Shown here: piece by piece, positions 14,523 to 61,451 of the stretch
Position numbering within the stretch: the stretch's first letter is position 1
Layout: each line of letters begins with the position of its first letter
Source of the DNA: Naegleria gruberi
Lineage: Eukaryota
Strand: one strand, 5' to 3'
NCBI GenBank assembly: GCA_000004985.1
Contig: GG738862.1
Length of the DNA: 64,000 nt
Program-made: the position numbers and the translations under genes
The notes under the pieces: generated by a model
Seen by the model: the letters and a program-made list of their open reading frames with translations, nothing else
Told to the model about the DNA's origin: nothing
Database searches by the model: none

Positions 14523-14525
14523 TTC

Positions 14526-30833: not shown

Positions 30834-30971
30834 TTATTTTACAACTAACTAGAAATTTTTGATTTGTTGATAGAGGGAAGAGACAGGGAAAATACAGCAC
30901 GCATGGTACCTTCTGTAAATCACAACAATTAAAATACAAAAAATTGTGTAAATAATTATAATATTACAAAC

Positions 30972-32870
30972 ATGATGCGCTTGCAAAAGTTAAAAAAAAT
31001 GGGAAAACGAAAACATTCAAAAATTTCAAAGGAAAAGAAAAATATTCATCAAAGGGAGGAAAAGTCTGCACCAGGAGTTGTTATGACTAATTTGCCAGAT
31101 GGAGCATCATTACAAATTTCTACAAAAAAGAAAAAGATGTCTCATGCTTCTTCTACTACTCCGAAGAATGATCAAATTGGATTGGAAATGATTGAAAAAT
31201 GGCAGCAAATTTTGAGTTTGCAAGATACACTCACCCTGATTCTGGGTTACATTCCCGAATATTTATTGGAGAGAACAATGAGATTTGTTAATAGGGATTT
31301 TTATCTTGCATCCTCTGTTGCTTGGAGAGAGAATATTCGAAGTTTGAAAATTCATGCATCATCACTCAAGGAAATAGAGATTGGTATTAAAAGATGGGAA
31401 AAACTCAAGAATTTGAAAGATGTAAAGATTTCGTTTACTGATTTTGATATATGCTATGAGTTTGATGTTTGTTGCTTGAGTCATTTGGGATTTGAAAAAA
31501 TTGGAGTTGTTAATACCACATCAATATTTTCCAAATCTCTTGTTGACACTAAATGGGTTGAAACTTTGAGATATTTACAAATTGATATTCATCAACAATA
31601 TTTTACTGCCTTGTTTGACTTGAATTTACACACTTTGGTTGTACAATTTCTTGAATTGGATGATAGTGAATTAATTATTGGAAAGGATGATAAGCCTTTA
31701 TTTAAAAGTTTAACCCATCTCGATTACTCGAGTATAGCATTCAATAACATGGATGAATTTTTGAATAGACTTGTTAACCTTAAAAAATTGAGAAATGGTG
31801 ATGATGACATGAGTATTGAGAATATCAAATTACCTAATTTGAAACACTATAATTGTATGCATGAATTAATGGGGATAGAAGAGGTATTTCCAAAGTTAGA
31901 ATCTCTAAAATCATATTCTAGTTTTTCAACAGCTAACGTGACAGGAGCAATCTCCCTAAAAACTTTAAAATCGGTAACCCTTAGTTTAGAATCAAAAACG
32001 ATTAGCTCTATTCCAGATGCACTGTTTAATTTACCACTCCTTGAAAAGTTGTCATTGCTTGTCTACTGCTCCAGTCTAACAAAATGTTCAAAAATTAACC
32101 CAAAACCATTGGATAATTTGAAAAAGGTAAAGCTTGTATTTTTTGAATACGAGAACGGTGAGCTTCCAATATCATTCTTTCATTTCAGAAAATGTAGCAA
32201 TATTGAAAAAATTAGATTTGAAGAGGAAAGTCAAAAGGTATTAGTGGATATGAATGATTTTTCAAATTTTCCATTATTGAAAAGTCTAGCAGTAACAGCT
32301 GGATCTGCTTCTAACTGGAATAGTCCTATTTGCACTCTGGAATCATTGGCAATTAATGTAAAAAAACAATGCTCAGTTACACTCACAGGACTAGACAAAC
32401 TGAAGCGTTTGGAATATGTATCACAAAATATGAATAGTCTGGTTCAATATCTAAATGATAACTCTAATGATTGTATTAGAGATTTGAATATTTCTGGAAA
32501 GGATATTTCAAAGTTCACATCATTTCCCTGTTGTTTGGAAACCCTCACCATTACACACATGTATCTAAAAGAAATTAATGAGAGATTTGTGAACATTGTC
32601 AAGAACCAAACCAACCTTAGAAAACTAGTCATTGAGGAATCCAAATTCGACCTGGTTCCACTCTTGGAATCGCTCACTTGTCTCATCCATCAAATTAGCA
32701 AAATACAATTGAGTGGTGAATGCTATCCTATACCATACTCTGAATCCAAATATATTACCAATTTACTCAAAGTCATATCAATATATGACTCCAAGAAAAT
32801 AGATCTCAAACTCAGTGGTTTTAATTATACATTCTCAAATCAATCAACTGGATATCTCATCTCTCAAATC
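30972..32870 (+). CDS. F-box-like/LRR-like protein, copy B (3' end lost in gap)
   Basis: About 99% identical to 16368-18302, with 5-6 amino-acid substitutions. The frame runs into the N run at 32871. Confidence 0.5.
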
Positions 32871-41243: not shown

Positions 41244-44200
41244 TTATTGTCCCAAGAATTGATCTTTCAAAGCTCTATAGTTGGAATATGACTTTCTCTT
41301 GTCAGCAGCTGCCTTTTCAATCTTTTCATCAAGCTCATTTTCATTTGGATCATCAGCCTTCATTTCTTCCAACATGAGTAAATCAGTAGTCTTCAAGTTA
41401 TACTTGTAGAGGGAGTAAGCTAAATGGCTAGTGTTTGGATTAGCTTGTTTATGAACTGTGACAGCTCTACTTTGCATCTTCTTAATAACATTCAACATGG
41501 CAATAGCTCTCTTTGGAGTATACTTGCTGGTCATCTTGAACAACATAAAGTAAACTCTAAGACTAGCAGCAACATTGTTACAAATTTGAGCAAATGAGGT
41601 ACATTTTGGAGTGTATCTTCCTCTAATTTGGAATGCAGCATGCTTGTATTGAATGATATCTCTTAAAGACATGAGCTTTTCATTGATTTCTTGTTCAGTG
41701 GCAATATTAGGAGTTGAAGCAAAGTGTTCCAAGTTGTGAATATTACTCAAAAGAATTGATTTCAAATTCAAAACGGATGCTTCAAGAGCCTTGATATGTC
41801 TGACATCTCCTTTGGTCATTGTTGGTTCTTCCTTCAAACATCTTTGAATGAAGAAATAACATTGGTTACACTTTTCCAATGATTGATAGCTCAAACGAGT
41901 CTTGTCAATATTCAATTTGAGGTATTCAGATTCAGCCAATCTATACAAGCTGAATACTTTAGTCTTGATACTGAATTGAGAATTGGTTGCAAGTTGGCAA
42001 CAATATTTGATCATCTTTTCAGTGTTGTTACAACCATCAGCTTTGAAAATTGGTTCATATCTGGAATATAAATATGTCAACTTGAGGAGAATATTCAAAT
42101 CCAACTCTGTAATATGCTCAGGTAAAATATTGTTCAACATATTTCTATTTGTACAAGCTCCTGGTGTAATTAGGGATGCTGAAATGTCACCATCAAGAGA
42201 AGAGGGTTGAATATCAGGCAACATGTAATCCTTGTTGAGGGTCTTGGCTGCCAAATACCTAGTCAAATTCAAAATTTCAAGAGAAGTGCCAGAGAAATAC
42301 TTTTGTTGGAAGTACTTTTCAAATAATCTCAAGGCATGCAAATTGTTAGAATCTTTACAAAGATTGTTTTCAGCCTCTTTAACAATTTCATTCAAAACTG
42401 AATCGCCAATTGGTCTGAAAACATTTTCACTTCTAGTTTTCAAGATATCATCCATGAGACCGTATCCATCTTCACCTGGGTCCATTTCAGGATCAGCATT
42501 TTCAGCATGTTTTCTGTTCAACAAAGCCATTTGCAAATCTACCAATGGCCACATTCTTTCACCAAAACATTCCTTAAGTTCTGAATCCTTTTCAGTCTTC
42601 TTCTTTCTTCTAGAACCTTGAACCAATACTGGTACATTCCATCTCAAAAGAGTTTCCATTTCTACATCACCAGTAACTGTTGGAACCTGTTGTTGAAGGA
42701 AGAGCAATAAATTGATAGTAATACCCTTGATTGGTTTTACCATCTTGACTTCAATATCAAAAGAAAGTCTGGAATTGATATTTGTACCAACAATTTGTTC
42801 ATTCCAACGAGTATCATTACCTAATTGTTCAATTTTGAAATTGAGAGCTTTTTGATTTTTCAAAACTGTCTTGAATTTAAAGTATTCATCAATTTCTTTC
42901 AATTCTTTACCATCAACTGTAATTTGAGCAGTCAAATAGAGTTGATAGGCATCCAATGTTTGTTTGGATTCATTACCATTGCTTGTACTTCTTTTACCAT
43001 ATCTTAACAAGAGGGATTGATCCAAATAAATGTCATATTGATATCCTGTAAGAGAAGCAAGAACTATTGGGTCAACTTCTAGCAAACTTAGCAATTCGAA
43101 TGTCATCTTCTTCTTTGGTGTGAATTTGATGCATTCAATAATTGGATCACCATTTAATAAAACGATGGTAATAGAGTTATTTACATATTTGAGTTTGTTC
43201 AACAATGAGTAAGAATTGGAGTTACCAGGTACGTTATGTGTCATGGAAGCAGCCAAATCCAATCCCTTGTTAGGATCAGTTGGGAAGAAAGATGCCATCA
43301 TAGTATTCATAATATTATTAGTAGCATCTGTACTTGTGGAATCAACAGATACATCTCCAACATCAAGAAATTCGAAATTTGGATTTTGAATGTGTTGTTG
43401 CAAAGTATCAAATTGTTTGATTTTCTTAGATTGATCATTATCTGTAATATTCTCATCTACATCATCAAATTTTCTCTTTGGTCCTCTTCTTTCATGTTGA
43501 AGAACATGTGACGGTGGAGGAGCTTGTTGAACATTTCTTGATGGTTGTTGTTGAACAGCAGTAACAACTGGAGGAATCATCTCCTGTTGTTGCTGTGGAA
43601 CGATTGAAGAGGCAGCTGCAAGAATACCTGGTGATGTCTCAAATGCAGCATTATAGTCATAAGAGTTTCTGTAAAACATGGAATCTTGATCTGGGATTCT
43701 TAGCCATGATGTTAATGGAGTGGCAGGTAAAACTTCTTGTCCAGCAGGAATAACAAACTGTTGTGCATTGAATTGATTGTTAAGTGCAGTGTTAAATAAC
43801 TGTTCTTGATTACTGTTTACATTGTTTGCTGGAGGAGTATTTCCATACTCAAAACATCCATCAGCAAACAATTCATCAAAATCATCAAACAATGTAACCT
43901 GTTTACGACCTGTTTGTTGTTGATACATTGGATTTGTTTGCATGTGGTGTTGTGGATAGTTAAAATTTGGGTCAGAAATATAGAAATTGGCTGGAGTTTG
44001 ATTGTTGGATGTAAAAACATGTTGTTGTGGTGGTGGATTTTGGAATGTTTGAAGGGAAGGTAAAATGTTCTGTTGAGGAATTACAAAATTTGGTTGTTGT
44101 GCAAATGCAGTGCTAGTTGTGCTCGAGTGATGTTGTTGATTATTGGACAATTGGTGATGATAACCATGGTTGTGATGATGTGTTAGTGGTGGTAGATTGT

Positions 44201-44693
44201 TTTGATGTAAAGATCCACCATTCATGTTGTTGCTATGGAGTGGAGATGTGGAAACACCATTACTACTACTACTAGCATGTTGTTGATGAGATGCAACAAT
44301 TGATGGCGGAATATTACTTGTTGTTGTTGCATATCCATTGCCATTACTGTTCATCTGTTGTTGAAGTAATCGACTTTGAATGGATGCTTGCAAGAGGGCA
44401 ATTTGTTCCTTTTGTTGTTCAATCAAATCTCGTTGTTGTTGGAGGAGGAGAAAAGCCTGTTCATCACTCACATTTGGATTAGAGCTTCCAACCAATTGTT
44501 GTGTTTGACCCAATAAATTACCATACGACATGGAAGGAATAGAAGCAGCAGCACCACCATTTGCTGTATGATTCGGAAGCATATCTTGTAAAATCATGGA
44601 AGGTAATGGTTGGGAATGGCCATTGGTTCCTGGCGAGGAAAGTCTATTGTTGGTTGGTGAATGTTGATGATGTGAATGTTGCTGATTCATCAT
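41244..44693 (-). CDS. large Q/N/H/S-rich hypothetical protein (1149 aa)
   Basis: ATGATG at 44688-44693. N-terminal ~480 aa is low-complexity poly-Q/H/N. The C-terminal ~650 aa is a structured, helix-rich domain with no assignable family from sequence alone. TAA stop at 41244. Single exon. Confidence 0.55.
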   Translation of the reverse strand: MMNQQHSHHQHSPTNNRLSSPGTNGHSQPLPSMILQDMLPNHTANGGAAASIPSMSYGNLLGQTQQLVGSSNPNVSDEQAFLLLQQQRDLIEQQKEQIALLQASIQSRLLQQQMNSNGNGYATTTSNIPPSIVASHQQHASSSSNGVSTSPLHSNNMNGGSLHQNNLPPLTHHHNHGYHHQLSNNQQHHSSTTSTAFAQQPNFVIPQQNILPSLQTFQNPPPQQHVFTSNNQTPANFYISDPNFNYPQHHMQTNPMYQQQTGRKQVTLFDDFDELFADGCFEYGNTPPANNVNSNQEQLFNTALNNQFNAQQFVIPAGQEVLPATPLTSWLRIPDQDSMFYRNSYDYNAAFETSPGILAAASSIVPQQQQEMIPPVVTAVQQQPSRNVQQAPPPSHVLQHERRGPKRKFDDVDENITDNDQSKKIKQFDTLQQHIQNPNFEFLDVGDVSVDSTSTDATNNIMNTMMASFFPTDPNKGLDLAASMTHNVPGNSNSYSLLNKLKYVNNSITIVLLNGDPIIECIKFTPKKKMTFELLSLLEVDPIVLASLTGYQYDIYLDQSLLLRYGKRSTSNGNESKQTLDAYQLYLTAQITVDGKELKEIDEYFKFKTVLKNQKALNFKIEQLGNDTRWNEQIVGTNINSRLSFDIEVKMVKPIKGITINLLLFLQQQVPTVTGDVEMETLLRWNVPVLVQGSRRKKKTEKDSELKECFGERMWPLVDLQMALLNRKHAENADPEMDPGEDGYGLMDDILKTRSENVFRPIGDSVLNEIVKEAENNLCKDSNNLHALRLFEKYFQQKYFSGTSLEILNLTRYLAAKTLNKDYMLPDIQPSSLDGDISASLITPGACTNRNMLNNILPEHITELDLNILLKLTYLYSRYEPIFKADGCNNTEKMIKYCCQLATNSQFSIKTKVFSLYRLAESEYLKLNIDKTRLSYQSLEKCNQCYFFIQRCLKEEPTMTKGDVRHIKALEASVLNLKSILLSNIHNLEHFASTPNIATEQEINEKLMSLRDIIQYKHAAFQIRGRYTPKCTSFAQICNNVAASLRVYFMLFKMTSKYTPKRAIAMLNVIKKMQSRAVTVHKQANPNTSHLAYSLYKYNLKTTDLLMLEEMKADDPNENELDEKIEKAAADKRKSYSNYRALKDQFLGQ

Positions 44694-45468: not shown

Positions 45469-46939
45469 TTATCTAGCAGAAGGTGGAGTCACTAATGGTG
45501 TTAATGGTGTTCTCAATTTTGCAGGAGGAATTGGTTGACCATTTTTAACACAAGAATAATCCTCCATTAATTGATCTACCTCGTCCATGGCTTCATGGAA
45601 TTCACCTTCTTCCATTCCTTCACCAACAAACCAAAATACAAATGATCTCTTATCTTTTGAAGGTTAGATTTCATGTTTCAATAAAAACTTACAAAATAAT
45701 TCCAAGAATCTGGTACGTAATTTTGTGAGTGGATCAACAATCGATGATGAATTGTTATAAACTTGAATATAATCTGAGAATGAAAGTGAGCTATCTGATA
45801 AATTTTCTGATTTCTTTGAGAATATTTGGTGATGGAAATTATCTGTTGGTGTTTTCAATTCATCTGACTGCTCCAAAAATTTAAAGGCAAGGTCAGGGGA
45901 AAAGTTTCCTCTCAATGCAATATCCATCAATATTGATTTTGAACCAAAGTGATCAGTTGCACTCATTTTACAATCATTAGTAAAGAGATCCGTAAAATTA
46001 ATTTCAGAACTGACGTTATCGACCTTTTTGAAAGTACTAGCAATAATATTCAAATTCTTGTAAGGGCTCAAAATAGGACAGGTTGAATTATGGAATCGAG
46101 TTGGTAAGGTAAATGTTGAAATAGTTTGTGAAATAACGTCATTTACATCTCTATAATTTGGTGATGGATTCCCATAACTCCTGCAAACATTGTACAATGA
46201 CTCATTGTCCAAATTGAAAATATTAGTCATGTTATTTCTTTTCAGGTCAGCTAAAGTCAATGCTGTATTGTATGGTTCAACAACTTCTGTCTGGAAATTT
46301 TCAGAAGGAAACACACTGAACGAAGTTTTGTTCTATAGATGAATCAATTAGTTAAATATTGAAAGAAATTTCACTTACTAATTCTGGATAATCATCTTCC
46401 AATATTTCAACAATGAAGGAGCTAGTTCCTGAACCAGTTCCACCTTCCATCGAGTGAGTCATTACAAAACCATCTGGAGAATCACACGCCTCTATCATCT
46501 TTCTCACTCTCTCCTTAATATAGCCTTTGAACGCTCCTCCAATTGTAAATTTACCTCTAGCAAAGTTACTTGCTGAATCTTCCTTTCCCTTGATCAAATT
46601 CTCTTCCTTTAATAAACCCGAAAGGCTTGGATCTTTCTTCACTTGCTCAACAGTGCACTCATCAGTGTCGATGAACAAGCAACGAGCATGTAATTTATTC
46701 TCCTCCCTCATACTTTCATCATATAATGAGGTTAAATTTAAAGAGCATAATGATGACGGTGGTGTTGTATTATTATTCAATAATTGATTGGTGTTGTCTT
46801 GTTGATAATAGCCTTCACCATTAACGTGGTGTTCCTTTCCGAAGAGTTTCCATAATCGAGATCCGATTTGATTACCACACTGCCCAACATGAAAAAAGAT
46901 CAGTTCAGACATTTTTTTGTTGTTTATTGAGTGAGACAT
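45469..46939 (-). CDS. divergent tubulin-family protein, 3 exons (~461 aa)
   Basis: Exon 1 ~46379-46939 ([21 protein letters not shown]..., [13 protein letters not shown], the tubulin GGGTGSG loop). Introns: 46 nt (GTAAGTGAAA...CTATAG) and 39 nt (GTAAGTTTTT...AAAAG). Exon 2 ~45693-46332 (...[26 protein letters not shown]...DNESLYNVC...). Exon 3 ~45469-45653 ([33 protein letters not shown]). Q/N-rich insertion in the N-terminal domain. The track shows two ORFs plus untranslated exon 3. Confidence 0.8.
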
Positions 46940-46986: not shown

Positions 46987-49157
46987 TTAAAAGTTGTTTC
47001 TGTTTCGAGAGGGTAAACCATAAGGCATTGAATTTTGTCTGGAGAGTGAGCTATTGCTGCCTGTGTTTGAATTGGCAAGGTTATCTTTGCTGCTTGTTGT
47101 TGCTGGCTGAGCGAGGACGAAACTCTTAATGACGGCTATGGATTCTAATTTACGTATTGACATTCTCTTTTCTCGCTCCTCTTGACGTTTTTGTTTGAGA
47201 GCTAAACTTCTTTGAGTATCTCGTGGGGAAAGGAGTCCAGATAATTGGTCATCAGCCGAAAGTAAATTATCTGTAATTGAAGTATCTGCATTACCATCAA
47301 AGGAAACAAACGAACGAGAAGGTCTTGGCTTTGATTCATTGATACTTTCAGAATTGAGTGGAGAATCTACAAGTGGAGAGACAGGGGAATTAAGGAATGG
47401 TTCAATATCTAGTTTTTTAAGTGATGGTTGACTAGGTGATTTTTTGGGAGTTTCTACAAGTTTTCTATACTTTTTCCATTTGCTTTCATCCTTGGCATAA
47501 ATTTCCTCTTTCAAATAATAAATTGTAGCATTGAGAGTTGTAACACTGAAGCCATACTCTGAAACTCCATGTTCTTCTTCCAATTGATAATCTTGCATGT
47601 AATTGAAATTGGTAATCATGTTGGGAATTTGTGCTCTTACTAATACATAAGCAAGGAGAGGGATCATATCATCGGTGGTAACAAATTCAGTCTTGCTATT
47701 CGCTTGGTTAAATCTCGAAATACTATTCACAATCTTGTCTGTTGTATTTTTTATACATTTCATCTTGTCGAATGGATTTCTTGCTAAATTAATGTTTTCA
47801 GAAAGGAATGTAATAGCTTCCAATTGATCACATCTGAAACTATTTCCAATACTCAAAACATCAAATAAATCGTATGCAGCTGTTTCTTCGTCTTCCAAAA
47901 CTGAGCAAGCAGCATTAATTGACATGCAAACATGCAAGAAATTCTTGTCCTCTGAATAATAGGCATACTTTTCTAAAAATGGGAATAACTTGTCATAAAT
48001 TCCTTCCAATAAAACGCCATGTATAGCATTCTTAACATCCTTATCTTCCTCAGTTGACAAGCTCACATTTTGAAACTCTCCATAAATTACTTGGTAATAT
48101 TCCATAATCTTGTCAGGTATTGAACTGTGAAATCCTCGTAATAATAAATAATTAAAATTAAAATGTTGAATTGATCGTTTGAGTTTGTCGTTATAGGCCT
48201 TATAGTTGACATCTTGAAGAAATTGATGATATTCCTCAACAGTTGTTGGTCGTTTTTCTGTCCATTTGGCTGCTTCACTACCACTTTCAGAGTAATCATT
48301 ATACTCATTGAGTGCTCCTATTGATATTTGTTGATGTTCCTATAACATTAAATTTTAATATATAACATTTAAAACTAGATCAACTTACATCTGCTATACA
48401 CTTGTCAACAAACAAGACCTTATAGGGTTGATATTTGTCATTATAACAAGTTTCCTCTTTCAAGACAAAAACATTAAAGCTCTTACTAAATCCCTTTCCT
48501 GTTTGCAATACATTTACAAAATCAAAAGAATTTTCTTCTGTTGAATTAAAACCAACTCCGAGAGAGGCAAGAGATACATTCTTCTTTTTCTGTCTGGATA
48601 AATTTTCATAAAGTTCCGAATTTTCACAAATTTGATTTCCTCTATCGGTAACATATTCTCCAATGAACAATGGTGAATTGGAAAGAATGTGGTCCTCTAT
48701 CATGTGGTTACACATAAGAAATACAGCAGTTAGGAATTTAATATATCAAAAGAAACCTACTCATAAAGGCTTGAAATTTAGCTCCAGAATATTTCAAAGT
48801 ATTAATTACATAATTCAATTCATCATCAGGAGGAATACAAATAGTCTTTTGTGCATCTCTACAAGATTGAAGATATTGTTTACTTTCCGATAATATGTCC
48901 CAGAATAATGATGAATCAAGATTTAAATTTCTCTTCCTCGCAACTCTTTTCCTCTTTGATTGCATAATAACAGGTGCTTCCTCTGATACTTTTGCTTTTG
49001 ACAAATCCTTTTTTTCAAATGTCAAATCCGAAGGAGATTTGTTAATATTATTATTTATATTATTCTTGGCAAATTCTCTTTGAAACCCAGAGGCAGGCAA
49101 TGATGAAGACATTATAGAATTCTGCGATCCGACTCCTCTACTTTGCCTATTCATCAT
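46987..49157 (-). CDS. VPS9-domain protein (Rab5-family GEF-like), 3 exons (~685 aa)
   Basis: Exon 1 ~48761-49157 (ATGATG start). 64-nt intron (GTAGGT...GATAG). Exon 2 ~48389-48696. 49-nt intron (GTAAGTTGAT...TTATAG). Exon 3 46987-48339. VPS9 core: DDMIPLLAYVLVRAQIPNMITNFNYMQDYQLEEEHGVSEYGFSVTTLNATIYYL. S/P-rich C-terminus. Track ORF 48087-48308 is out of frame. Confidence 0.75.
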
Positions 49158-49636
49158 GATGATTAATTAATAGACGTTGTTGATCAAAAAATAAAAATGA
49201 TGAAACTCTGTGGTAGCAATTCTTTTGGATTTTTTTTTGATTAATTTTTTCCAGATAATGCGGAGTTTTTAAGGAGTTTTAAACTATTGAATTTCAACAA
49301 GATTTCGAATTGATATTGGAAATAGTTTTCAAAATCTCTCTAATACATTGTAGTAATTCATTTCTTCACTATGAATCATTCAACATTGTGAAAAGTTTAG
49401 TTGGCAAGATTCTTGCCATATAATGTGGCATCCCTTATCAACCAATTAATTGAATTGTGCACCAATAATTGGTCCACTAAGATTTAGAGATGATTAAATA
49501 CCCTACCTAACCTCAGATATTGTTATGTTGGTGGTGGTGATATAATTGGTAGGTACCCTTGCTAGGTAGGGGAGTAATACTCATCCATTCAACAACACCA
49601 CTCATTTCCAGGTCCAACTCGAATTCAAAAAAGAAA

Positions 49637-50512
49637 ATGACGAATAGCATTGAAGGAAAATCACTGCCCAACAACTACCCACCAAATAATTTCACTTCAT
49701 ATCATTCCTATTCTACACAGGCAACAGAAAAGAGGAAGGGAGCATTTGTTGTGGTTGAAGAGGAAGAACATGCTCATGTTTGTTATTATAATGATGGCAA
49801 AAGAGTTTCGTATGGAAGTGTTGTGCAAGATGTGGTGTGGAATGAGGAGTATGTTATGAATAGTTGGAGGATTGAGAATGAGGAGAAGGAGAGTAAGGTG
49901 TTTCAGGGTTTGTTGTTGATTGTGTTGGTGGCAATTGTTGCTGTTGGGTTATTGGCCATCTTGTTTGGTGTATTGTCAGCTTCGAATATTGACGACAATG
50001 CTTTTTATTTACCTACTTCATGCACTGTTTTGGAAAGATATGGTTGCTCATGTGAAAATGAAGATTCGAATAGGTTTCTTTCCGTGATTAATACAGTTTC
50101 TAAACTATTTGATTCAACTAATTCCCATCTGAAACAGTATGAATCAGCAAATCCAGAGCCAAATCCTTATCCATGCCCTACAATCAGAAAGTGTGTCTTT
50201 AAAACTCTGATACATTCTAACAATTCCATGGACATTAGGACAACATGCGTGCTCTTTCCAGAATCGAATTATCCTATTGGATCGAATACGACTTGCTATT
50301 TGAGTGAGCAACATTCTAAACTGGTTTCCTTCACTTTTTACTCGAGTGTGAATGAGGCAATGAAGATGATTGCTATTTTGTTTGGTATTATTGCAAGCAG
50401 CTTGTTGGTTGTAACTATTTTCTTTTCTATTTGTGTTGCAGGTTTTAAACTTTGCCAGAGAAGGAAAATTGCCTTAATGAGAAGAAATTTAAATTCAGCC
50501 ATAGTTTTATAA
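49637..50512 (+). CDS. hypothetical membrane protein (291 aa, 2 predicted TM helices)
   Basis: The track start 49559 is TTG; the first ATG is at ~49637 (MTNSIEGKS). TM helices LLLIVLVAIVAVGLLAILFGVL and IAILFGIIASSLLVVTIFFSICVAGF. A Cys-containing extracellular region lies between them. Confidence 0.4.
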   Translation: MTNSIEGKSLPNNYPPNNFTSYHSYSTQATEKRKGAFVVVEEEEHAHVCYYNDGKRVSYGSVVQDVVWNEEYVMNSWRIENEEKESKVFQGLLLIVLVAIVAVGLLAILFGVLSASNIDDNAFYLPTSCTVLERYGCSCENEDSNRFLSVINTVSKLFDSTNSHLKQYESANPEPNPYPCPTIRKCVFKTLIHSNNSMDIRTTCVLFPESNYPIGSNTTCYLSEQHSKLVSFTFYSSVNEAMKMIAILFGIIASSLLVVTIFFSICVAGFKLCQRRKIALMRRNLNSAIVL

Positions 50513-50570: not shown

Positions 50571-53500
50571 TTATTTTGGAGAGTACATTCCCAACTTGGT
50601 GTCAAACATGAGTTTGGCTTTTTGTTGTTTACGGAAGAAGCTACTTCTAATTCTAATCTTGATTAATTCATCAATTACAATGAATGCAAATGGTGCCAGT
50701 AAAATGATAATGTAGGCATAGAATGGATAATTTGGCCATGCTTGTACTCCTTCAGGTCTAGAAATAATGAGGTGAATGAATGTGAAAAGAGCTTGCAAAG
50801 CCAAACACAATGGAACACAAATCCACCACATGATATTCATAAAGAATTTAACAGTGAATATTGAGTAAACTCTGTGCATTGTTCCAAGTGAAAGGAAGGA
50901 ATAATAGTAAATCAAAATAAACATGGTAATAGTTTGGGCATATGCCAAAACAAAGTAAAACTTTTCACTCTTTCTAATTTCATTGGATAATTGATCTCCC
51001 CAAATGAGCCCTACATTGTCAATCTTGACAGTTTCATCCATACACATTATAGTCCAAAAGTAAACAACAAAGCAAGCTGGAACTGGAAGGCAAAAACGTA
51101 AAAATGTTAAAAGTGCCTTTCCAACATATCTTCCAGTTCTAAATTCATTCTTTGATGAAATAAGGTCCATAATTTTTGGTTCCATTGGAGTGCCGAGTAG
51201 AGAGAAGGAGATCAATGGAATGGCAATCATGCAAAGCCACAAGAATTGAATACCAGTGAAAATAGTAGATGGAAGGGCCATGAGAACGGAAAGTAATTGC
51301 AAAATGAATAATGAAGATGAGCAACCAAAGAGGAAAATCAAAGCTTGTCTAATATTATGAACCAATCTTCTACCTTCCTTAATCATGTGCAAAATCATAG
51401 AGAATGCAGAAAGAGCAGTCTCGGATTGATGAGAGGTAATGTGTAAAGCACATGGATAGGACAAGAATGGAGAAATATCTTCCTGCAAATCTGAAACTTC
51501 TTCTTGATGATTATCGAATTCCATTGGTCTCAAATGTTGTTGAGTGCAAGGATCAACAGCAATGGAAATATTGGCTTGATTGAAGGCACGAGAATTGTTA
51601 ATGTTGATGGAAGAACCAACACAACAGACAACTTCATGATTTTCCTGCAAGACCTCAATCATTTGCTTGGATGAAACAGGCGTAGAGTCGGAGAATAGAG
51701 AAACCAACAATGGAACATCGTCAACAGTTTTCAAGTGTTCCTTGATATTTTCAATACCGTGTGGAAGTTTGGCTTTCAAATCTTCAACATCCAGTTCAAC
51801 TTCATTATCATTCAATGATATGCAACAATTCCAATCAACTTCCATTCCCAATTTTGAACCAAAAGCTTTGGTTTTTTGGGAATTATATGGTGAGAAGTGA
51901 ATAAATCTAATACCAGAGTTGTCTTGAACGTCACTAATAAATTCGGCAAGATCTCTCTTTGGCTGCTGTCTGAAAGCTGCAACTCCCAACAAAATTTGTC
52001 CTCTTTGCATTTGTTCTGCATGTAAGATGAATTTTTCACTGTCAAAATCTTCTTCAGAGAATTCTTCGAGTGGTGTCAATAAATGTTGAGATAGAGATGC
52101 AGGGCTAATAATTCCATTGAGTTCTGTCTTTGAATGATTAATTTCTTGACGAGTAATGTTGATAATATCATCCTTATTGCTATTCAAAACATTATCATAC
52201 TTAGGATCAATTGGGGTGTACGAAATAGCCAAACAATATAAATCTCTTCTTTCTCTCCAATTCTTGACTGTTTCCAAAATATTTTCCTTGAATTGCTTAC
52301 TCAGTGGTTTAATATCTGTTCCAGAGTAATAGTCAGAGCAATATTCCAATACTAAATCTGGATCACCAAAGGAGTGAACTTGTTTTTCTTGTTCCTCATA
52401 CTCAACTACAATAGAGCTCATTTCCCAATTATTACATTGGGTGTGGAGTCTCTTTTTAAAAGTAAATGATTCTAAAACACTGTCTGAGAAACCAATTTCC
52501 TTACCAAGAAGATAAGCATACTTTTTCCAAAGGTGAGACTTGGCATCCAACATTCCTTCAACTCTATCAAAATCTGGAAGAGGGGAAGAACCCGTAATAA
52601 GCAAACTCAAACCAAGTGGTTTAAGTGAATTAGTGTGAACCATCCAATTAGGATCAGTGAATCTGATGACATCCACCTCTCTTGATGCAGTTCTATCAAA
52701 GAGGACATCCAAAGTAATAGTTTCTTCAGCCTTCTCAATGATTTGCATGTTGGATACATCAAGAGGGTTAGCCGCATGACTTGACTCTGATGCTTGGTGT
52801 GTTTCAGTGTGATGTTCATGTCTTTCCTTATTGTGTGTATGAGATTGAGAATGTTGATGATGGTGATGATTGATTGTTTCATCTTCAGGTCTTTCGACAG
52901 TGATGGTAACTTCTGATGGAATGACTTCATCATTAACATTAATTCCACCTACCATTTCGTCAACTTCATCACCCATACCAGTCTTTACAACAACCTTAAT
53001 CTTTTCCATATCCTTGAGTTCCATTTCAGTAGCATCAGTCAAATCCTCAGGATAGTTATTGGTGCATGAGACAATCTGGCTTGGTGTACTGTTTCTTCTA
53101 TCTCTAGTGCTGGCATATTTACTATTTTGTTCTGTATATTGTTCTTCTGAAATATCGACAGCGCTTGTAAAGTTGTTGTGTCTTTCATCATCTCCCTTCA
53201 TGAATAAAACCTTCTCTGGAGCATACAGCAAGTCAGCCAATAAACCAGTTCTGTTAATAAAGCACAAGGCAGTGATTGTTCCCAACACTGTCAAGTTATC
53301 GTAATAGCTAGCATTGGCAGTAAGAATAACTTTGAAAAAGTTTCGTACTTGACTAAGGAATGGAACTTTCATTGGAGTATTACGATTTGATTCAGTGACT
53401 TGAACTCTTTTCATGTGATCATCCCCGCTCTCACCATGCAATGGCTCGTTGAGAGTTTCGAACAGAGAGAGGAGTTTAGAGTTGGAAAATGATAATGAAA

Positions 53501-55031
53501 GCAACCAAAACCCAGGGAAGGCGATTGGTAGCAGAACTAAACAGACATAACATGGCTCCACAAAGGCAAATGTAACCCAGTCATATGATGCTGATCCAAC
53601 GCCAATTCTAATCAAATTACAAATCAGAGCAATACAATATCCAAGGTAGGAAACTATGGTCAATACTGAAATCAAGTTATTGAGCTTGATTTTGAGAGGC
53701 ATCTTTTCCTGTTGATTTCTATAATCCTCATAAGTTTCTTCAATATAGTGACTCATTGGAGTTAAAGAAATCTTATAAAATCCCTTCTCCAATTCTTGAT
53801 GGGCTTCAAAACTAATATTATTATCCTTAAAATCTCTATCAATATTGGTTGAATAAACCAAGTCTCCCTTCACCAATAAAATGTGTGGCATCTTACTCCA
53901 GCACTTATCTCTAAAAACAAAAATCATCTTGTATGGAATCATGTTAATACCTTCAAATAAATTACCATCCTTGCTTTTCATGGAAAAGTTAAAATCATTC
54001 TTTTTCAAAATTGAAAACTTTTGTTTCAGTAAACTGATCACAACGCTATGTCTTCTGTAGTATGAAATGAGTGTCACACTCAAAAAGAAGATTAGTACAA
54101 AGAGTAAAATTGTTGCCTCAACAACTAATCTAATAGCTCCGTAATGATCCTCAAAAGGAATGCCGCCAAATTTCAATCCAGCTGCAATATATAACAGGAT
54201 ACAACACACAAATCCAAGAAGTACCAATAATCCTGCTCTAATAGGACTTTTCCTAATTAACACATCCACTAACGCCATAATAAATCCTTGTTTCGATCTA
54301 TTCTCAATTTTTTCAATAGTTTCCTCCAAAGAATCGAACAAATTTTGCTTGGCTTCACTCGTTGAAAGTCCATCCACTAATGAACTCTTAAAATTCGAAA
54401 GTGGTGAAATATTATCATGGACTTTAAAGTTCTTTTCCGAATGTTGAACAGAAGTTACAGATGACAAAATTTGAGGTGAAGTTACTTCCGAACTTTTTCT
54501 AGCATTATGAGACCCCTTTGCTGACAATGATGAAGTACTTCCAAAGCCTCTTGATGCTTTCACGCTTGAAGTTGGTAATTTCTTATTTGCTGTTGTTGAT
54601 AATGAATTTGTATTGTTTTGTAATGATGGATTAGAAGGATTATTGCTGGACATTGCTGTACTATTGTTAATATTTGTATTATTGCTAGTTTGATGTTGTG
54701 AATGTTGTGAATCGTGTTCACTTTCTTCGTTATTCGATGATTCTCTTGAAATATATTCCATAGAATTTGGAGAAGTAAGCCTTGTCTCTTCATGTTGTTG
54801 TTGTTGATGATGCTCTTCTTCTTCGTGATGATGATTCGACATGGTTTCATCTGTTGTTCCGGAAGGTAAATTTTCATCATATTCAGAATGATGTTCTTCC
54901 AAATGTTGTTGTTCCTCTTCGTGTTGTTGTTCCTCGCCTTCGGTTGTTGTTGGTGGCGAAACAGTCGCCACTGCTGCATCACCAGAATTCTCTTCTATTG
55001 AAATTTGTTCTTCTTGCAGAGGTGAAGACAT
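50571..55031 (-). CDS. P-type-ATPase-like polytopic membrane protein with degenerate catalytic motifs (non-canonical phosphorylation site), 1486 aa, single exon
   Basis: ATG at 55029-55031. The H/E/Q-rich N-terminus is followed by TM helices. LGTITALCFINRTGLLADL aligns with the P-type phosphorylation loop LGSTSTICSDKTGTLT, but DKTGT is replaced by INRTG (Asp lost). VVCCVGSSININNSRAFNQANISIAV aligns with the hinge [24 protein letters not shown] but is also degenerate. C-terminal multi-helix bundle. TAA stop. Confidence 0.65.
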   Translation of the reverse strand: MSSPLQEEQISIEENSGDAAVATVSPPTTTEGEEQQHEEEQQHLEEHHSEYDENLPSGTTDETMSNHHHEEEEHHQQQQHEETRLTSPNSMEYISRESSNNEESEHDSQHSQHQTSNNTNINNSTAMSSNNPSNPSLQNNTNSLSTTANKKLPTSSVKASRGFGSTSSLSAKGSHNARKSSEVTSPQILSSVTSVQHSEKNFKVHDNISPLSNFKSSLVDGLSTSEAKQNLFDSLEETIEKIENRSKQGFIMALVDVLIRKSPIRAGLLVLLGFVCCILLYIAAGLKFGGIPFEDHYGAIRLVVEATILLFVLIFFLSVTLISYYRRHSVVISLLKQKFSILKKNDFNFSMKSKDGNLFEGINMIPYKMIFVFRDKCWSKMPHILLVKGDLVYSTNIDRDFKDNNISFEAHQELEKGFYKISLTPMSHYIEETYEDYRNQQEKMPLKIKLNNLISVLTIVSYLGYCIALICNLIRIGVGSASYDWVTFAFVEPCYVCLVLLPIAFPGFWLLSLSFSNSKLLSLFETLNEPLHGESGDDHMKRVQVTESNRNTPMKVPFLSQVRNFFKVILTANASYYDNLTVLGTITALCFINRTGLLADLLYAPEKVLFMKGDDERHNNFTSAVDISEEQYTEQNSKYASTRDRRNSTPSQIVSCTNNYPEDLTDATEMELKDMEKIKVVVKTGMGDEVDEMVGGINVNDEVIPSEVTITVERPEDETINHHHHQHSQSHTHNKERHEHHTETHQASESSHAANPLDVSNMQIIEKAEETITLDVLFDRTASREVDVIRFTDPNWMVHTNSLKPLGLSLLITGSSPLPDFDRVEGMLDAKSHLWKKYAYLLGKEIGFSDSVLESFTFKKRLHTQCNNWEMSSIVVEYEEQEKQVHSFGDPDLVLEYCSDYYSGTDIKPLSKQFKENILETVKNWRERRDLYCLAISYTPIDPKYDNVLNSNKDDIINITRQEINHSKTELNGIISPASLSQHLLTPLEEFSEEDFDSEKFILHAEQMQRGQILLGVAAFRQQPKRDLAEFISDVQDNSGIRFIHFSPYNSQKTKAFGSKLGMEVDWNCCISLNDNEVELDVEDLKAKLPHGIENIKEHLKTVDDVPLLVSLFSDSTPVSSKQMIEVLQENHEVVCCVGSSININNSRAFNQANISIAVDPCTQQHLRPMEFDNHQEEVSDLQEDISPFLSYPCALHITSHQSETALSAFSMILHMIKEGRRLVHNIRQALIFLFGCSSSLFILQLLSVLMALPSTIFTGIQFLWLCMIAIPLISFSLLGTPMEPKIMDLISSKNEFRTGRYVGKALLTFLRFCLPVPACFVVYFWTIMCMDETVKIDNVGLIWGDQLSNEIRKSEKFYFVLAYAQTITMFILIYYYSFLSLGTMHRVYSIFTVKFFMNIMWWICVPLCLALQALFTFIHLIISRPEGVQAWPNYPFYAYIIILLAPFAFIVIDELIKIRIRSSFFRKQQKAKLMFDTKLGMYSPK

Positions 55032-55167: not shown

Positions 55168-57141
55168 TTAGCAATAATCTACTTTTTCCATGATTTGGGA
55201 AACTAGAGTTTCGCATTCATTCTCGTCACAGTCCAACTCATTTAATAGAGATTCCTTGACTTGTTCCAGTGTAATATTTCCATTCTTAATGAGATTGGCT
55301 ACATATTTGATAGTTTGAGGTTTCCAGAATTTCTTCAACTTGTCACTTCCCAAAAAGTTAGCTAATTTATAAAGCTCAAACATATCAGCATCTTGAATTG
55401 TTAAATTTTCCACCATGAAATCTTCACATTTTTTGAAAAGTGCATTATAGTCCAATTTTTGGGATTGTATTGATAGTTCAATACATATCGAAGGGGTAAT
55501 ATTTGCATTTTCACTGTAAGTGTAATTGATTAGTTGTTTCAAAATTTCCATGTTTGGACAATTAAGTTCCAATGTTGCAATTCCATTTTTTTCCTCTTCT
55601 TCTCTGAATTGAATTCCCTCAGAGAATCCACAAGACGTAATGATATCGAAATAGGCGCTACGCTTTGTAACAAACTTTTTGTGACAAAGTATGACATCTC
55701 TTTCTTGTTCGGAAACTTCTTCATCTTCAATAGATTCAGCTAACTTGATTTTCATGTCACAACCCTTTCTTCTTAAAATATCTAACAGATTGGTTGGCTG
55801 CTTGCTTTCCAAACAAAATCCTAGAGGTGATAGGTCTTTTTGAAGTTCCTTTTTTCTAGCATCTTGAAAATTGTCCAAATTAGCTTTAACCTTGAATTTT
55901 CTGGCAATGAAATCAGCTTGAACTCCAATTTCCACGAATAGAATCTTTGCAAGATTTGTTAATTTCAATGAATAGGCAGCATCCATCAATTCCTGCATGA
56001 ATTGAACTGAAGCGTCCCTAATAATGATTTTTTCCAATGGAATGAATATGCTTTTAACTCTAGGATCAATAATTCTACCTGTGTAAATGTAGGCGAGGAT
56101 AACTTCAAATGGTTTTCTACTGAAAGGTGCATCTCCCAAATTTAAATCAGATAATCTCTCATAAACTTGGTCTATCTGTTCCTCGTTAAGAGTTGGTAAC
56201 TGATAGGGCAGAAATTTTTCTTTGACATACTTTTTGGCAACAAGAACAGAAGATCTGATGCTTTCCAATGTTGGCCTTTGTAAAACTGAGAATGCAGGAA
56301 AAACCTCTCTCTGATATTCACGTGGATCTAAATCATAAGCAAGCATTGTTTTTAAATCCAATGCAGACAAAACAGAGTTTTGGATTGGATGTTCAGATGA
56401 TTCGTTCAATGCAAAATCAATAATTTCTGGCCATCTGGAAATTAAAATCCATTTGTGAAGTCTGTAAGTAGCTGGTAATTGTTCACCAGAAAATTTGATT
56501 GTCAAAGTCATATCAGGTCCATCCATGTTCTCTTCTTCATTTGAGAATATAGCTCTCTTCACAAATGACAATAGTAAGTTCACTAAATTATCATCTTCAA
56601 TCACACCAGACTCATCCTCTTTAGCTTTCTTTTGTGTAGAAAATGAGTAATTATGATAACTCTTCAACAACCATCTCATTTCTTGACTCAATGAATTGAG
56701 ATAACAACGAGAAAACTTGTCATCCCTAGCACCAAGATCTAAATTCCTATCAGCAATTGAAATTCATCAAAAACTCAACTTACCCAATAAACGTTTGGCT
56801 ACATGAACATGTCCAGCCAAACAACTATAATACAGCATTGTATTTCCATGCCTATCAATATCAGTAATTGTAGCTTGCTTTGTTTTGAGCATTTTCTCCA
56901 CTCGAGGCCAATTTCCCTGCTTGGCTAAACTAAAACCTTCATGATCGCAAAAATCAAAAGGATCAAATCCCTTCTTTGGAGTCAGAGGAGATTTCTCTGA
57001 AAAGTTGTGAGCCAAAATCTTGGAAAAGTCATCTCCGTGATTGTGTGCACTATTTGGTGATGATAATTCACTACTGAATTGGCTAGTATTTGCTGCTGTT
57101 GTGGTTGTTGTGGAATTGTTTTTCTGTTGTGCTTGTCCCAT
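55168..57141 (-). CDS. ankyrin-repeat and tandem BTB/POZ domain protein (ABTB/BPOZ-like), 2 exons (~642 aa), N-myristoylation motif
   Basis: Exon 1 ~56784-57141 (MGQAQQK..., ankyrin unit DIDRHGNTMLYYSCLAGHVHVAKRLLG). 45-nt intron (GTAAGTTGAG...GAATTTAG). Exon 2 55168-56738. Two BTB cores (MTLTIKFSGEQLPATYRLHKWILISRWPEI and RDVILCHKKFVTKRSAYFDIITSCGFSEG). Confidence 0.7.
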
Positions 57142-59208: not shown

Positions 59209-61148
59209 TTATTTGAGGATAACCTTACTCTTATGAGAAGTATATAGCTCTACCAGAGGTTGTCTTTCAATAGTATTGGCATGAATAGATCCATCCTTAG
59301 CATCCTGTAAGTGAATTTCTTCCAATTTTGGAAAATCTGCATTCAACAGGAATTTCACACCTTCCAAACCTATTAAATTCTGATTCAAAAGGAAAACTCG
59401 AACGTTTGTCAGTGATCCATTACATAATATTTCACATCCTGCATCCCTAATGTCATTTCCAACAAGATCCAAGTATTCCAATTTTGAAAGTGCATTCAGA
59501 TAGAGACAACCAGAGCTGCCAACATTATTTCTCGAAATGGTTAAGTGCTGAAGTTGAGGAAGGAGTGAAATACATCTACAACCTTTGGAACCCAAATTAT
59601 TATTTGAAACTGAGAGGAGGTTGAGGAATGGAAGACTGGAAATGTTTAGGCAACCTTCGTCTCCAATATTGTTGTTATCGACATAGAGTTTAGTTAACTT
59701 TCCAATGCCATTGGCAGTCAATTCTGCAAATCCACTTGATCCTATTTGACAATCTCTCAAATATAAATCTTGTAATGAGAGGAATTGAGCTTTTGCCAAA
59801 TTTTTACATCCTTCATCTGAAATTGGATTATTCGAAATGTTAAGATAAACCAAAGAGGAAACATCTGCATTTCCAATAAATGCACAATCAGATGGTCTAA
59901 CCTCACAAGATTCCAAACTGAGCCACGTTAAATTTGGCATGTTTCCATTGAAAATAAATTGAATACCAGATCCAATAAGCATATTCTTTGAGAGATTCAA
60001 TTGGACCAAATTCTTCAAGTTTCCATTTCCCAAATATTGACAAGCATCAAAATCTAATGCACAACATGACAAGTTCAAGTGAGTTAGAGTTAATAATCCT
60101 CCATTCGAAAGATATTGACATCCCTTTGAATATATTCTATTACCACTCAAATTCAATTGAATCAAATGATTTAGATTACCGTTGGCTAAATATTTACATC
60201 CATTCGATTTGATTCCATTATTATTTGTTTCATTAAGACTTTCAAGACTCACATCTAAACTTGTCAAGCATTTCAATTTACCATTCGCTAAGTATTTACA
60301 TCCCTTTGATCCAATGGAACGATGAGAAGAAACCATTTCTAAACTTGTCAAACCTGTCAAGGAAGTTACTGCACTACTTGTTAAATATTCACATAAATGA
60401 CCAAATGAATAACCTTCAAATGAATCTGCCTCCATCTCATTTGCAAAACTCTCTGTCATGGTCAATTTAGTCAAATTAGGCATGGAATCGAATAAATTCT
60501 TCAAAACTTTTGCCCTTTTCTTTTTTGGAGAAGAAGGAGTTGAAGGCGAAACTTTCTGAAATATTTTCTTCAACTTTCCAAATCCAGAAACCTTCCTCTC
60601 ATTCAAACCAGTGCTAATACTTGGTAAATCCTTATTTGGAATTGAAGGATTAGTAAAAGTTGACCCCAAACTACTCGAACTTGAATTATCATCAAAATTT
60701 GGTGAATTTGGAGTTAAATATCCACCACTTCCACTGACTGTTTCTCTTCTAGATGTCGAAATTGGAGTCGATGGCGATACACTCACTGATAAATCAAGTG
60801 AAACTCTATCTTGCTTTTTGATGTGAAATATTGGCAGTTCACTATAAATCGAATTACTGCAAACTAATTGTTGTAATAAATATTGAACGTGTGAAAATTC
60901 AATGGCATGGACATTAAATGCACCCTTTTCACAATTATTAATAAATTCAAAACATTTCAGAGGATCCTTCATGTCAATATTTATAATTCTTGGTAATGTG
61001 AAATTTAAAGAATTATTTTGATTGTTGACAGTCGAAGAAGTAATGGTACCGAACATTTTGGAGTGTCGATGGTTGGTGTAGGGAAGGTATTGTTCATCGG
61101 CTTCGTTTCTATTAAGTTTGGAGCCAAAGAACATGACAGATTTTCTCA
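59209..61148 (-). CDS. leucine-rich-repeat protein of ribonuclease-inhibitor (RNI/NLR-type) class (~646 aa)
   Basis: The track start 61233 is GTG; the first ATG is at ~61146-61148 (MRKSVMFFGS). The N-terminal ~300 aa is S/T-rich. About 14 RNI-type 24-28 aa LRRs follow (LxxLxLsxNxIGdeGcxxL: LTHLNLSCCALDFDACQYLGNGNL, LVYLNISNNPISDEGCKNLAKAQF, LNLLSVSNNNLGSKGCRCISLLPQ). Confidence 0.7.
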
Positions 61149-61451
61149 TTTTTTTATTAATTGTTTTATTGTAATGACAGGTGGCGTTTCTTGATGAGTT
61201 TGATTGCAAAAGGCAAGGAAAATTGACAATCACTGGATTGGTATGATATTAGTTCTTCACTAAGCAATTTTGGGCAACAAATATGAAAGAATCGTATGGA
61301 GTTTAGTTTCATTTCTTTGTCTCACTTCATGTCAAGTGGCGTTTGACATCTCCTTTCCACCATTAATTAATGATAATTTTTATTTTCTTTTGCTGTGGTC
61401 ATTTTTTAAATAAATTTTTTGAATTTACAAGAATTACAAGAATGAAAGAAA

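Follow-up and report, generated by a model that had tools for sequence, protein, structure and literature searches.

An orthologue of TMEM94/ERMA in Naegleria gruberi with a natural asparagine at the phospho-acceptor position of P-type ATPases

A stretch of 64,000 nucleotides from the genome of Naegleria gruberi (NCBI GenBank assembly GCA_000004985.1, contig GG738862.1), referred to below as the window, carries on its reverse strand an uninterrupted, ATG-started open reading frame (ORF) of 1486 codons plus a stop. It occupies positions 50571..55031 and constitutes, according to the ORF listing, the database identity and the searches described below, a complete single-exon coding sequence for a product of 1486 amino acids. 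A chance origin of such a reading frame is excluded, since it lies in DNA of 33-36% G+C and its product has homologues with E=0; over its full length the product is 100% identical to the database sequence “predicted protein [Naegleria gruberi]”, which marks the window as N. gruberi nuclear DNA, in keeping with its G+C content of 26-36%. By its sequence the protein is a TMEM94/ERMA orthologue, and its family branches from the P2-type ATPases; the aspartate that serves as phospho-acceptor in P-type ATPases is replaced in it by an asparagine, Asn593. The original prediction, made from the letters of the window, had described a 1486-residue, single-exon, P-type-ATPase-like protein at this place and had quoted strings from it, all of which were located: LGTITALCFINRTGLLADL, in which INRTG forms residues 592-596, and VVCCVGSSININNS, in which GSSININNS forms residues 1139-1147.

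The protein was identified by matching it to proteins whose structures have been solved. The top phmmer matches are human and mouse TMEM94 (9JJK, 9YYD and 9YWQ, with E of about 1e-78), which are deposited as “Transmembrane protein 94” or “Endoplasmic reticulum magnesium-transporting P-type ATPase”; human 9JJK is matched at 1.2e-78 in four collinear stretches, and SERCA at 1e-6. When a profile of ten relatives is used, the TMEM94 structures are matched at 7e-201 in one stretch, in which profile positions 100-1264 correspond to chain residues 71-1375, followed by SERCA at 2e-16, with transmembrane (TM) helices 5-10 aligned, and then by LMCA1, H,K-ATPase, SPCA1, PMCA and Na,K-ATPase. Pfam by itself is little help: the only part of the protein that reaches a gathering threshold, and does so narrowly, is the Cation_ATPase_C domain (PF00689; E=2e-6, residues 1257-1459), and the Pfam E1-E2_ATPase model falls far under its threshold, at 13.5 versus 28.1 bits. 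The fold is settled by the match in sequence to the solved TMEM94 structures. An AlphaFold2 model of residues 287-1486, built from a 10-sequence alignment, is poor (mean predicted local distance difference test score, pLDDT, of 49; predicted template modelling score, pTM, of 0.44), but a Foldseek search with it returns four TMEM94 entries first (best 9e-21) and after them P2-type ATPases only (about 1e-9 to 1e-10), with template modelling scores of only about 0.3, so that this search is to be read as qualitative support alone. The resemblance to TMEM94 that the original prediction had suggested is thereby raised to orthology by the phmmer match, the profile match and the Foldseek ranking, and a fold other than that of the P-type ATPases, which would have spoken against it, is not what the structural search returned.

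The architecture of the P-type ATPases is present in the protein: about ten TM helices, A, P and N cytosolic domains, and a fourth TM helix broken by proline, of which Pro502 is kept. A Kyte-Doolittle hydropathy profile shows about ten hydrophobic segments in a P-type-ATPase-like 2+2+6 layout (residues 268-286, 304-322, 453-471 and 496-514, then about six between 1231 and 1459), and this layout, together with the collinearity with solved TMEM94 and Foldseek matches that are all to TMEM94 or P2-type ATPases, bears out the topology that had been claimed for it. The orthology with human and mouse TMEM94 (ERMA, KIAA0195; 9JJK, 9JJN, 9JJO, 9JK3-5, 9YYD and 9YWQ) extends over approximately the full length. 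Common to these proteins and that of N. gruberi are the ten TM helices, the A-, P- and N-like domains CTD1-3, the unwound TM4 with its conserved proline, a GSSxN hinge in place of GDGVND, the absence of TGES, a conserved cluster of the form WN..ISL and LPxGI..H....D..PLLV.LF, and the C-terminal motif KLGMxSP. Outside TMEM94, the closest relatives in both sequence and fold are the P2-type ATPases (SERCA1a/2, LMCA1, SPCA1, the gastric and non-gastric H,K-ATPases, and Na,K-ATPase), with which the N. gruberi protein shares the 2+2+6 topology and the large cytosolic insertion between M4 and M5. Unlike them, it lacks DKTGT (INRTG), TGES, TGD, the aspartates of GDGVND, and KGAPE (SFGDP).

What defines P-type ATPases is that they autophosphorylate at an invariant aspartate, the residue on which their E1P/E2P cycle depends (PMC10654040). 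In human TMEM94 the proposed phospho-acceptor is D417 (D427 in the longer isoform, which is the numbering of PMC13322241), placed where the aspartate of DKTGT sits in true pumps (PMC12134183, PMC13322241). In the HMMER alignment to 9JJK, N. gruberi LGTITALCFINRTGLLA stands opposite human LGSVTVLCCVDKQGILS, and within these segments LCFINRTGLLA faces LCCVDKQGILS; human Asp417 aligns with Asn593, the lysine that follows it with Arg594, and V416, the residue before it, with Ile592. The five residues Ile592-Asn593-Arg594-Thr595-Gly596 correspond to human V-D-K-Q-G and to canonical (S)DKTG, as is indicated by this alignment, the DNA and the family column, and they are encoded at 53244..53258 (-) by the codons ATT AAC AGA ACT GGT, read from 53258 to 53244, with AAC for Asn593 at 53255-53253. 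The alignment to VDKQG confirms the claim that INRTG has taken the place of DKTGT. The further statement that the aspartate had been replaced by Ile/Asn was right about the loss of the aspartate and needs correction as to the substitute, which is Asn593 alone, Ile592 being the preceding residue.

The motif is not found elsewhere in the protein. A regular-expression scan of its whole length yields no DKTG, D[KR]xG, TGES/TGE, SGES, GDG, DPP, TGD or KGA, which answers the possibility that a canonical DKTG lies at another position, and the sole match to [DN][KR][TSQNE]G is the NRTG at 593. The hinge, which had been described as degenerate, is Gly1139-Ser-Ser-Ile-Asn-Ile-Asn-Asn-Ser1147, encoded at 51591..51617 (-); residues 1139-1145 read GSSININ, not GDGxND, and by the alignment and the family column the segment replaces GDGVND(AP) and matches human GSSANLRNS. 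In human ERMA, GSSANL structurally replaces GDGVND (PMC13322241), and the TGES motif is structurally absent from CTD1 of human TMEM94 (PMC12134183, PMC13322241). As three defining motifs (DKTGT, TGES and GDGxND) are missing, the N. gruberi protein does not, as far as motifs can indicate, count as a P-type ATPase by function.

The remaining features of the protein, all encoded on the reverse strand, can be followed from its N-terminus. Residues 1-215 (54387..55031) form an unconserved low-complexity extension rich in S, E, N, T, Q and H, with 21% identity to the N. lovaniensis orthologue versus 63% for the whole protein; the first 220 residues contain 19.5% S, 12.7% E, 10% N, 8.6% T, 7.3% Q and 7.3% H. 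The predicted TM1-TM2 pair (residues 268-322, 54066..54230) is marked by the first two hydropathy peaks, and it is followed in the A-domain-like CTD1 by Gly389-Asp390 (53862..53867), within LLVKGDLVY, which is equivalent to human G195/D196 and conserved in the family (G in 97/121 members, D in 108/121). The predicted TM3-TM4 pair, residues 453-514 (53490..53675), includes the unwound-TM4 motif, which aligns with PILPLLFP of human TM4; there, in the family alignment, Val499-Leu-Leu-Pro502 (53526..53537) corresponds to human P334-I-L-P337, the first proline having become valine and the helix-breaking second one being kept. In the P-domain-like CTD2, the segment that holds the phosphorylation loop, residues 575-612 (53196..53309), is the best-conserved one within Heterolobosea. 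Next to it, residues 613-775 (52707..53195) form an insertion rich in His, Glu and Thr within the N-domain-like CTD3; it is poorly conserved, at 42% identity to N. lovaniensis and only 12% in the case of Willaertia, and has pLDDT below 50 in the model. The conserved part of CTD3, residues 776-1000 (52032..52706), contains LKPLGL, GKEIGF and SFGDP, the last replacing KGAPE, in the alignment to human residues 502-884, and it holds the near-invariant family positions F791, W796, L803-K-P805, G847, G889 and P940. Residues 1001-1165 (51537..52031) are the C-terminal half of the P-domain-like CTD2, 87% identical to N. lovaniensis, and contain both the family-invariant cluster and, within the P-domain-like core, Gln1152-Ala-Asn1154 (51570..51578), where human TMEM94 has Q-S-D1016 (D1026 in the longer isoform) and the family column shows a second aspartate changed to asparagine. 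The predicted TM5-TM10 region spans residues 1216-1460 (50652..51386), as judged from Pfam PF00689, the profile alignment to TM5-10 of SERCA and hydropathy, and the protein ends with Lys1479-Leu-Gly-Met-Tyr-Ser-Pro-Lys1486 (50574..50597), the conserved KLGMxSP motif, with GMY versus GMN in human TMEM94.

The differences from human TMEM94 therefore comprise the change of VDKQG to INRTG, the replacement of the QSD aspartate by Asn1154, the replacement of P334, K1101, Q1110 and K1266 by Val, Gln, Ser and Tyr and of GMN by GMY, and two additions, namely the 215-residue low-complexity N-terminus and the 160-residue His/Glu-rich insertion in CTD3.

The state of the acceptor site across the family was surveyed by an exhaustive phmmer search over 1.84 billion representatives, which gave 1147 matches, 347 of them at E <=1e-30, and from which a family alignment of 121 members of at least 1000 amino acids was built. 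Named members of the family include TMEM94 of fish and spider and the proteins of the ascidian Phallusia, the fungi Neocallimastix and Sorochytrium, the amoebozoan Thecamoeba and the jakobid Andalucia, a range from which the TMEM94 family is judged to be ancient in eukaryotes. At the column of Asn593, where 119 of the 121 aligned members have a residue, aspartate occurs 108 times, asparagine 10 times and histidine once (in Andalucia godoyi), so that aspartate accounts for about 91% and the asparagine variant for about 9% of sampled members. Lacking D[KR]xG does not bar the N. gruberi protein from the family, in which this is a variant state. The alignment with orthologues that had been proposed as a check shows that loss of the aspartate is not a family trait: human TMEM94 and about 91% of members keep it, and it is lost in Naegleria and Willaertia and a few other lineages.

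The asparagine-bearers are the five Naegleria/Willaertia sequences, Phallusia mammillata, P0122, Thecamoeba quadrilineata (from a transcriptome), P0134 and P0012. P0122 is the nearest relative of Phallusia mammillata and presumably another ascidian; the nearest relatives of P0134 are TMEM94 proteins of arthropod type, and P0012 is a distant relative of Heterolobosea. Since nearest-neighbour identities place each of the Asn- or His-bearing sequences beside Asp-bearing relatives, the change from Asp to Asn has arisen repeatedly, at least four times and probably five. Of the replacements at the site, the isosteric asparagine is much the most frequent. A general degeneration of the asparagine-bearing proteins was considered and is ruled out by their deviation at 0-4 of the 47 other near-invariant positions, compared with a median of 2 in Asp-bearers.

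Near-invariant positions were defined as those conserved in at least 88% of the 121 members. There are 48, and N. gruberi matches 45 of them, the exceptions being N593, L1014 and K1097, of which Asn593 is the sole non-conservative one. The most strongly conserved positions form a TMEM94-specific cluster in CTD2 (W1067-N1068, L1089-P-x-G1092, H1099, D1104 and P1107), each kept in 117-121 of the 121 members; in the window the cluster lies at 51696-51832 (residues 1067-1112) and reads DWNCCISL, AKLPHGI and DDVPLLVSLF. It is far better conserved than the relics of the P-type catalytic motifs and may be the family's real functional site. Also conserved family-wide are the GD of the A-like domain, the LKP of the N-like domain, the GSSxN...N of the hinge, an arginine before TM5, and the C-terminal KLGMxSP, in whose columns G occurs in 107, M in 90, S in 105 and P in 105 of 121, with x being H in 44, N in 34, Y in 17 and W in 9.

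The relics of the catalytic motifs vary to different degrees. The hinge column that corresponds to SERCA D703 is S in 97/121 members and D in 1/121 (S in N. gruberi); the column of the lysine of DK is K in 70 and R in 28 of 121 (R594 in N. gruberi); and the column of the threonine of DKTG is highly variable. The same holds for residues reported as important for Mg2+ transport by human ERMA, namely P334, K1101, Q1110, K1266 and GMN (PMC13322241). The P334 column contains P in 83, A in 15, C in 9 and V in 5 of 121 (V499 in N. gruberi), and that of the second TM4 proline, human P337, contains P in 81/121 (Pro502). Lysine is found at K1101 in 10/121, where Q is the consensus and Gln1229 the N. gruberi residue; glutamine at Q1110 in 24/121 (S1238); and lysine at K1266 in 14/121 (Y1389 in N. 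gruberi, Gln in TMEM94 of the fish Parambassis ranga). The N of the C-terminal GMN is N in 34, H in 44 and Y in 17 of 121 (Y in N. gruberi, giving GMY). Because P334, Q1110, K1101, K1266 and GMN are poorly conserved family-wide, they do not define the TMEM94 family, and the idea that the differences at K1101, Q1110, K1266 and GMN are specific to Naegleria is ruled out, as these positions vary throughout the family alignment.

The second P-domain aspartate, human D1016/D1026 in QSD, is D in 90 and N in 24 of 121 members. Asn1154 of N. gruberi is one instance of a second-site asparagine that occurs in 8/10 of the sequences with an Asn acceptor versus 16/108 of those with an Asp acceptor, counts which are not corrected for phylogeny; by lineage it is found in 3 of about 5. 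In Acrasis the second-site asparagine is present and the acceptor aspartate is retained, a state that suggests a stepwise, possibly coupled loss of the two P-domain aspartates.

Within Heterolobosea, the history of the change can be traced more closely. The motif INRTG is shared by N. gruberi, N. lovaniensis and two more Naegleria-like sequences, which come from ENA and Logan assemblies; it also occurs in Willaertia magna, whose protein is 49% identical to that of N. gruberi overall. The aspartate is kept in Acrasis kona (IDKNG) and in the metagenomic relatives P0007 (VDKNG) and P0154 (VDKTG), and the two metagenomic proteins carry the same GLLADLLYAPE signature after the motif. Since INRTG is confined to the Naegleria-Willaertia clade, with Asp in Acrasis and related proteins, the change from DK to NR can be placed on the stem branch of this clade; it consists of two single-nucleotide substitutions, GAC to AAC and AAA to AGA. 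For the pair formed by N. lovaniensis and another Naegleria (SRR29240419), each of which has AAC AGA, the ratio of nonsynonymous to synonymous divergence (dN/dS) is 0.048, with dS of 0.62 over 1141 codons. The identity of the loop 575-612 to that of N. gruberi is 95% in N. lovaniensis, 97% in P0003, 79% in Willaertia and 61% in Acrasis, compared with 63%, 56%, 47% and 34%, respectively, for the whole protein, from which the loop around Asn593 is judged to be still under selection even without the carboxylate. The sharing of INRTG across taxa, the dN/dS of 0.048 and the position of the loop as the best-conserved segment together show that the gene is neither decaying nor erroneous. An Asp-bearing paralogue of TMEM94 in N. 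gruberi was found neither in a word-indexed search nor in the best 150 matches of the exhaustive search. As regards gene structure, the N. lovaniensis orthologue (L001 3001-7507) takes up 4507 nucleotides for 1442 amino acids and shows no straight translation; its length and the lack of a translation running through it imply about 180 nucleotides of intron(s), where N. gruberi has a single ORF.

The neighbourhood of the gene offers little guidance. In N. gruberi it is flanked by a BTB gene and by an ORF without a Pfam match, and in N. lovaniensis by TFIIIC-like and 2OG-Fe(II) oxygenase genes; local synteny between the two is not conserved, and gene order gives no functional clue. The BTB/POZ-domain protein is encoded directly upstream (55168-56691, -), and a VPS9-domain protein (46987-48105, -) and a leucine-rich-repeat protein (59209-61233, -) are also present, none of the three with an apparent functional link to the TMEM94 gene. 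Directly downstream, the 317-residue ORF at 49559-50512 (+) contains two hydrophobic stretches and has the look of a small membrane protein; neither it nor the 1149-residue ORF at 41244-44693 (-) has a Pfam match at E <=1e-3. Two ORFs of 216 and 195 amino acids at 45664-46314 (-) and 46352-46939 (-), 37 nucleotides apart, match the Pfam Tubulin GTPase domain, the first in its C-terminal and the second in its N-terminal part, and the pair looks like one tubulin-family gene split by a short intron or a frameshift. Elsewhere in the window G+C dips to 26% at 14001-16000 and to 28% at 30001-32000, against a background of 32-36%, with positive GC and AT skew in both.

The functional reading of Asn593 begins with chemistry. 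A carboxamide is unable to form an acyl-phosphate, and for this reason the Naegleria protein almost certainly cannot run the Post-Albers E1P/E2P cycle; with asparagine at the acceptor site, ATP-dependent autophosphorylation and vanadate-sensitive ATPase activity are predicted on chemical grounds to be impossible. The purifying selection and the intact family core show at the same time that the protein is functional. The explanation that best accommodates both is that it is a TMEM94 orthologue, a catalytically dead relative of the P-type ATPases, which is retained as a functional, constrained, non-phosphorylating membrane protein, and this is considered probable, with good confidence. The suspicion of a pseudo-ATPase voiced in the original prediction gains support in this way from the acceptor Asn and from the absence of TGE, GDG and D[KR]xG in the whole protein. 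In the proposed course of events, TMEM94/ERMA would have descended from P2-type (SERCA-like) ATPases and kept the ten-helix membrane domain and the A-, P- and N-like cytosolic domains, while most of the catalytic apparatus would have been lost family-wide (no TGES, no TGD, GDGVND changed to GSSxN), leaving the acceptor aspartate as the one canonical residue that is usually kept. In the Naegleria-Willaertia lineage Asp-Lys would then have become Asn-Arg through the two substitutions, and the change would have been fixed. The loop around Asn593 may have a structural role, or a role in binding a ligand or partner, in a rigid cytosolic headpiece, a role that asparagine could fill as well as aspartate, and the Naegleria protein may act as a scaffold, a regulator or a passive handler of lipid or ions. 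That the old phosphorylation loop has such a structural or binding role in a non-phosphorylating membrane protein appears most likely because the isosteric asparagine is the commonest replacement, because the loop is the best-conserved segment, and because purified human TMEM94 is inactive and adopts one conformation.

This last point comes from a study in which purified human TMEM94 had no ATPase activity, no nucleotide at D417 and no Mg2+ binding, and was found in one conformation across six conditions with a buried phosphatidic-acid-like lipid (PMC12134183). A second study, from one laboratory, reports ATP-dependent Mg2+ uptake by human ERMA in proteoliposomes that is abolished by D427N, an effect also seen in cells (PMC13322241). 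D427N belongs with SERCA D351N, Na,K-ATPase D369N and H,K-ATPase D386N, which are listed together as blocking formation of E1~P (PMC13322241), and these engineered mutants have the same Asp-to-Asn change at the homologous position as the Naegleria protein. Unlike them, the Naegleria asparagine is natural, was fixed before the split of Naegleria and Willaertia, is paired with a change of Lys to Arg, and is under strong purifying selection.

Several points weigh against the preferred explanation. If the D427N result is right, then the aspartate matters in human, and Naegleria could represent a lineage-specific loss of function which is not evidence about the family. The aspartate is kept in 91% of the family, and the acceptor position is thus clearly not neutral. 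The survey drew on the best 150 of the approximately 347 strong representatives of the family, and the AlphaFold2 model, with its mean pLDDT of 49, is too poor to show the local geometry at Asn593. The data show the identity of the protein, the substitution, its phylogenetic distribution and the purifying selection; that the Naegleria protein does not pump is concluded from chemistry and conservation, and the nature of its retained function is inferred.

A broader form of the preferred reading holds that the ancestral function of TMEM94/ERMA was independent of aspartyl-phosphate, so that the family would be one of pseudoenzymes, not of P-type Mg2+ pumps, and the D427N phenotype would reflect structure or binding. 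This is suggested by the recurrent change of Asp to Asn (to His in Andalucia) with the core intact and with purifying selection where it is measurable; it is advanced tentatively, as a view on which some doubt prevails. It competes with the possibility that the ancestor was an Asp-phosphorylated Mg2+ pump and that Naegleria-Willaertia, the ascidians, Thecamoeba and others kept a non-catalytic second function, which overlaps with the best explanation as far as Naegleria is concerned and differs from it solely on the rest of the family. Such an origin would account for the abolition of Mg2+ uptake by human D427N in proteoliposomes and cells (PMC13322241), for the presence of Asp in 108/119 members with a residue at the site, which indicates selection, for the confinement of its loss to a few terminal lineages, and for the change of the second P-domain aspartate (human D1026) to Asn in 3 of the approximately 5 lineages with D-to-N, as if the site were being dismantled. 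It is nevertheless unlikely, since TGES, the aspartates of GDGVND (S in 97/121) and other motifs of phosphoryl transfer are gone family-wide, human included, which makes the canonical cycle doubtful even in Asp-bearers; since independent work saw no ATPase activity and no nucleotide near D417 (PMC12134183); since the loop stays the best-conserved segment, with dN/dS of 0.048, after the loss, which is unusual for an abandoned active site; and since the residues critical in human vary family-wide (K1101 10/121, Q1110 24/121, K1266 14/121, N of GMN 34/121).

It might also be supposed that the protein is an active ATP-dependent transporter which works by a non-canonical mechanism, for example through an ATP site at the membrane interface as in mouse ERMA, where a non-canonical density for ATP-gamma-S has been described beneath TM8 (PMC13322241), with the D/N position being structural. 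The intact membrane domain, Pro502 and the 45/48 near-invariant positions are compatible with this, and the recurrent isosteric D-to-N change agrees with a side chain that forms hydrogen bonds and does not act as a nucleophile. The lysines of the ATP site are, however, Gln1229 and Tyr1389 in N. gruberi and are K in only 10/121 and 14/121 of the family; Ser1238 stands in place of Q1110, which is proposed to coordinate Mg2+, and Val499 in place of P334; and human D427N is transport-dead in the assay of the same laboratory (PMC13322241), so that such a mechanism must be regarded as improbable. The last alternative, that Asn593 stems from faulty sequencing or assembly or marks a decaying pseudogene, is favoured only by the prior expectation that some unusual residues in active sites turn out to be errors, and it can be dismissed, given AAC AGA in two independent assemblies of other Naegleria, the same residues in five independently sequenced taxa, 1486 open codons, dN/dS of 0.048, and a Thecamoeba variant that comes from a transcriptome.

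The TMEM94 family, its fold and its degenerate motifs were already known, and what appears to be new, as far as could be found, is a natural, fixed and recurrent change of Asp to Asn. Such a state at the TMEM94 acceptor was not found in the literature searched, and an earlier mention in Vishnu 2024 or Palmgren 2024 is possible; nor was any literature found on TMEM94 together with Naegleria, or, in a broader search, any evolutionary survey of TMEM94.

Loss of TMEM94 causes a human neurodevelopmental and cardiac syndrome, and the mechanism of the protein is of medical relevance for that reason. Opinion is divided on the status of TMEM94/ERMA as a true P-type Mg2+ ATPase, with Vishnu 2024 and Venkatesan 2026 in favour and Palmgren/Morth/Nissen 2024 and Li 2025 opposed, and on the functional side the case for catalysis relies mainly on the loss of transport in D427N. 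Naegleria presents the same substitution as a natural, long-fixed and selected state, with an Asp-keeping relative in Acrasis and with independent replicates in the ascidians and an amoebozoan. The conservation of the WN..ISL and LPxGI..H..D..PLLV cluster, set against the variability of K1101, Q1110, K1266 and GMN, points to where the functional site of the family is likely to lie.

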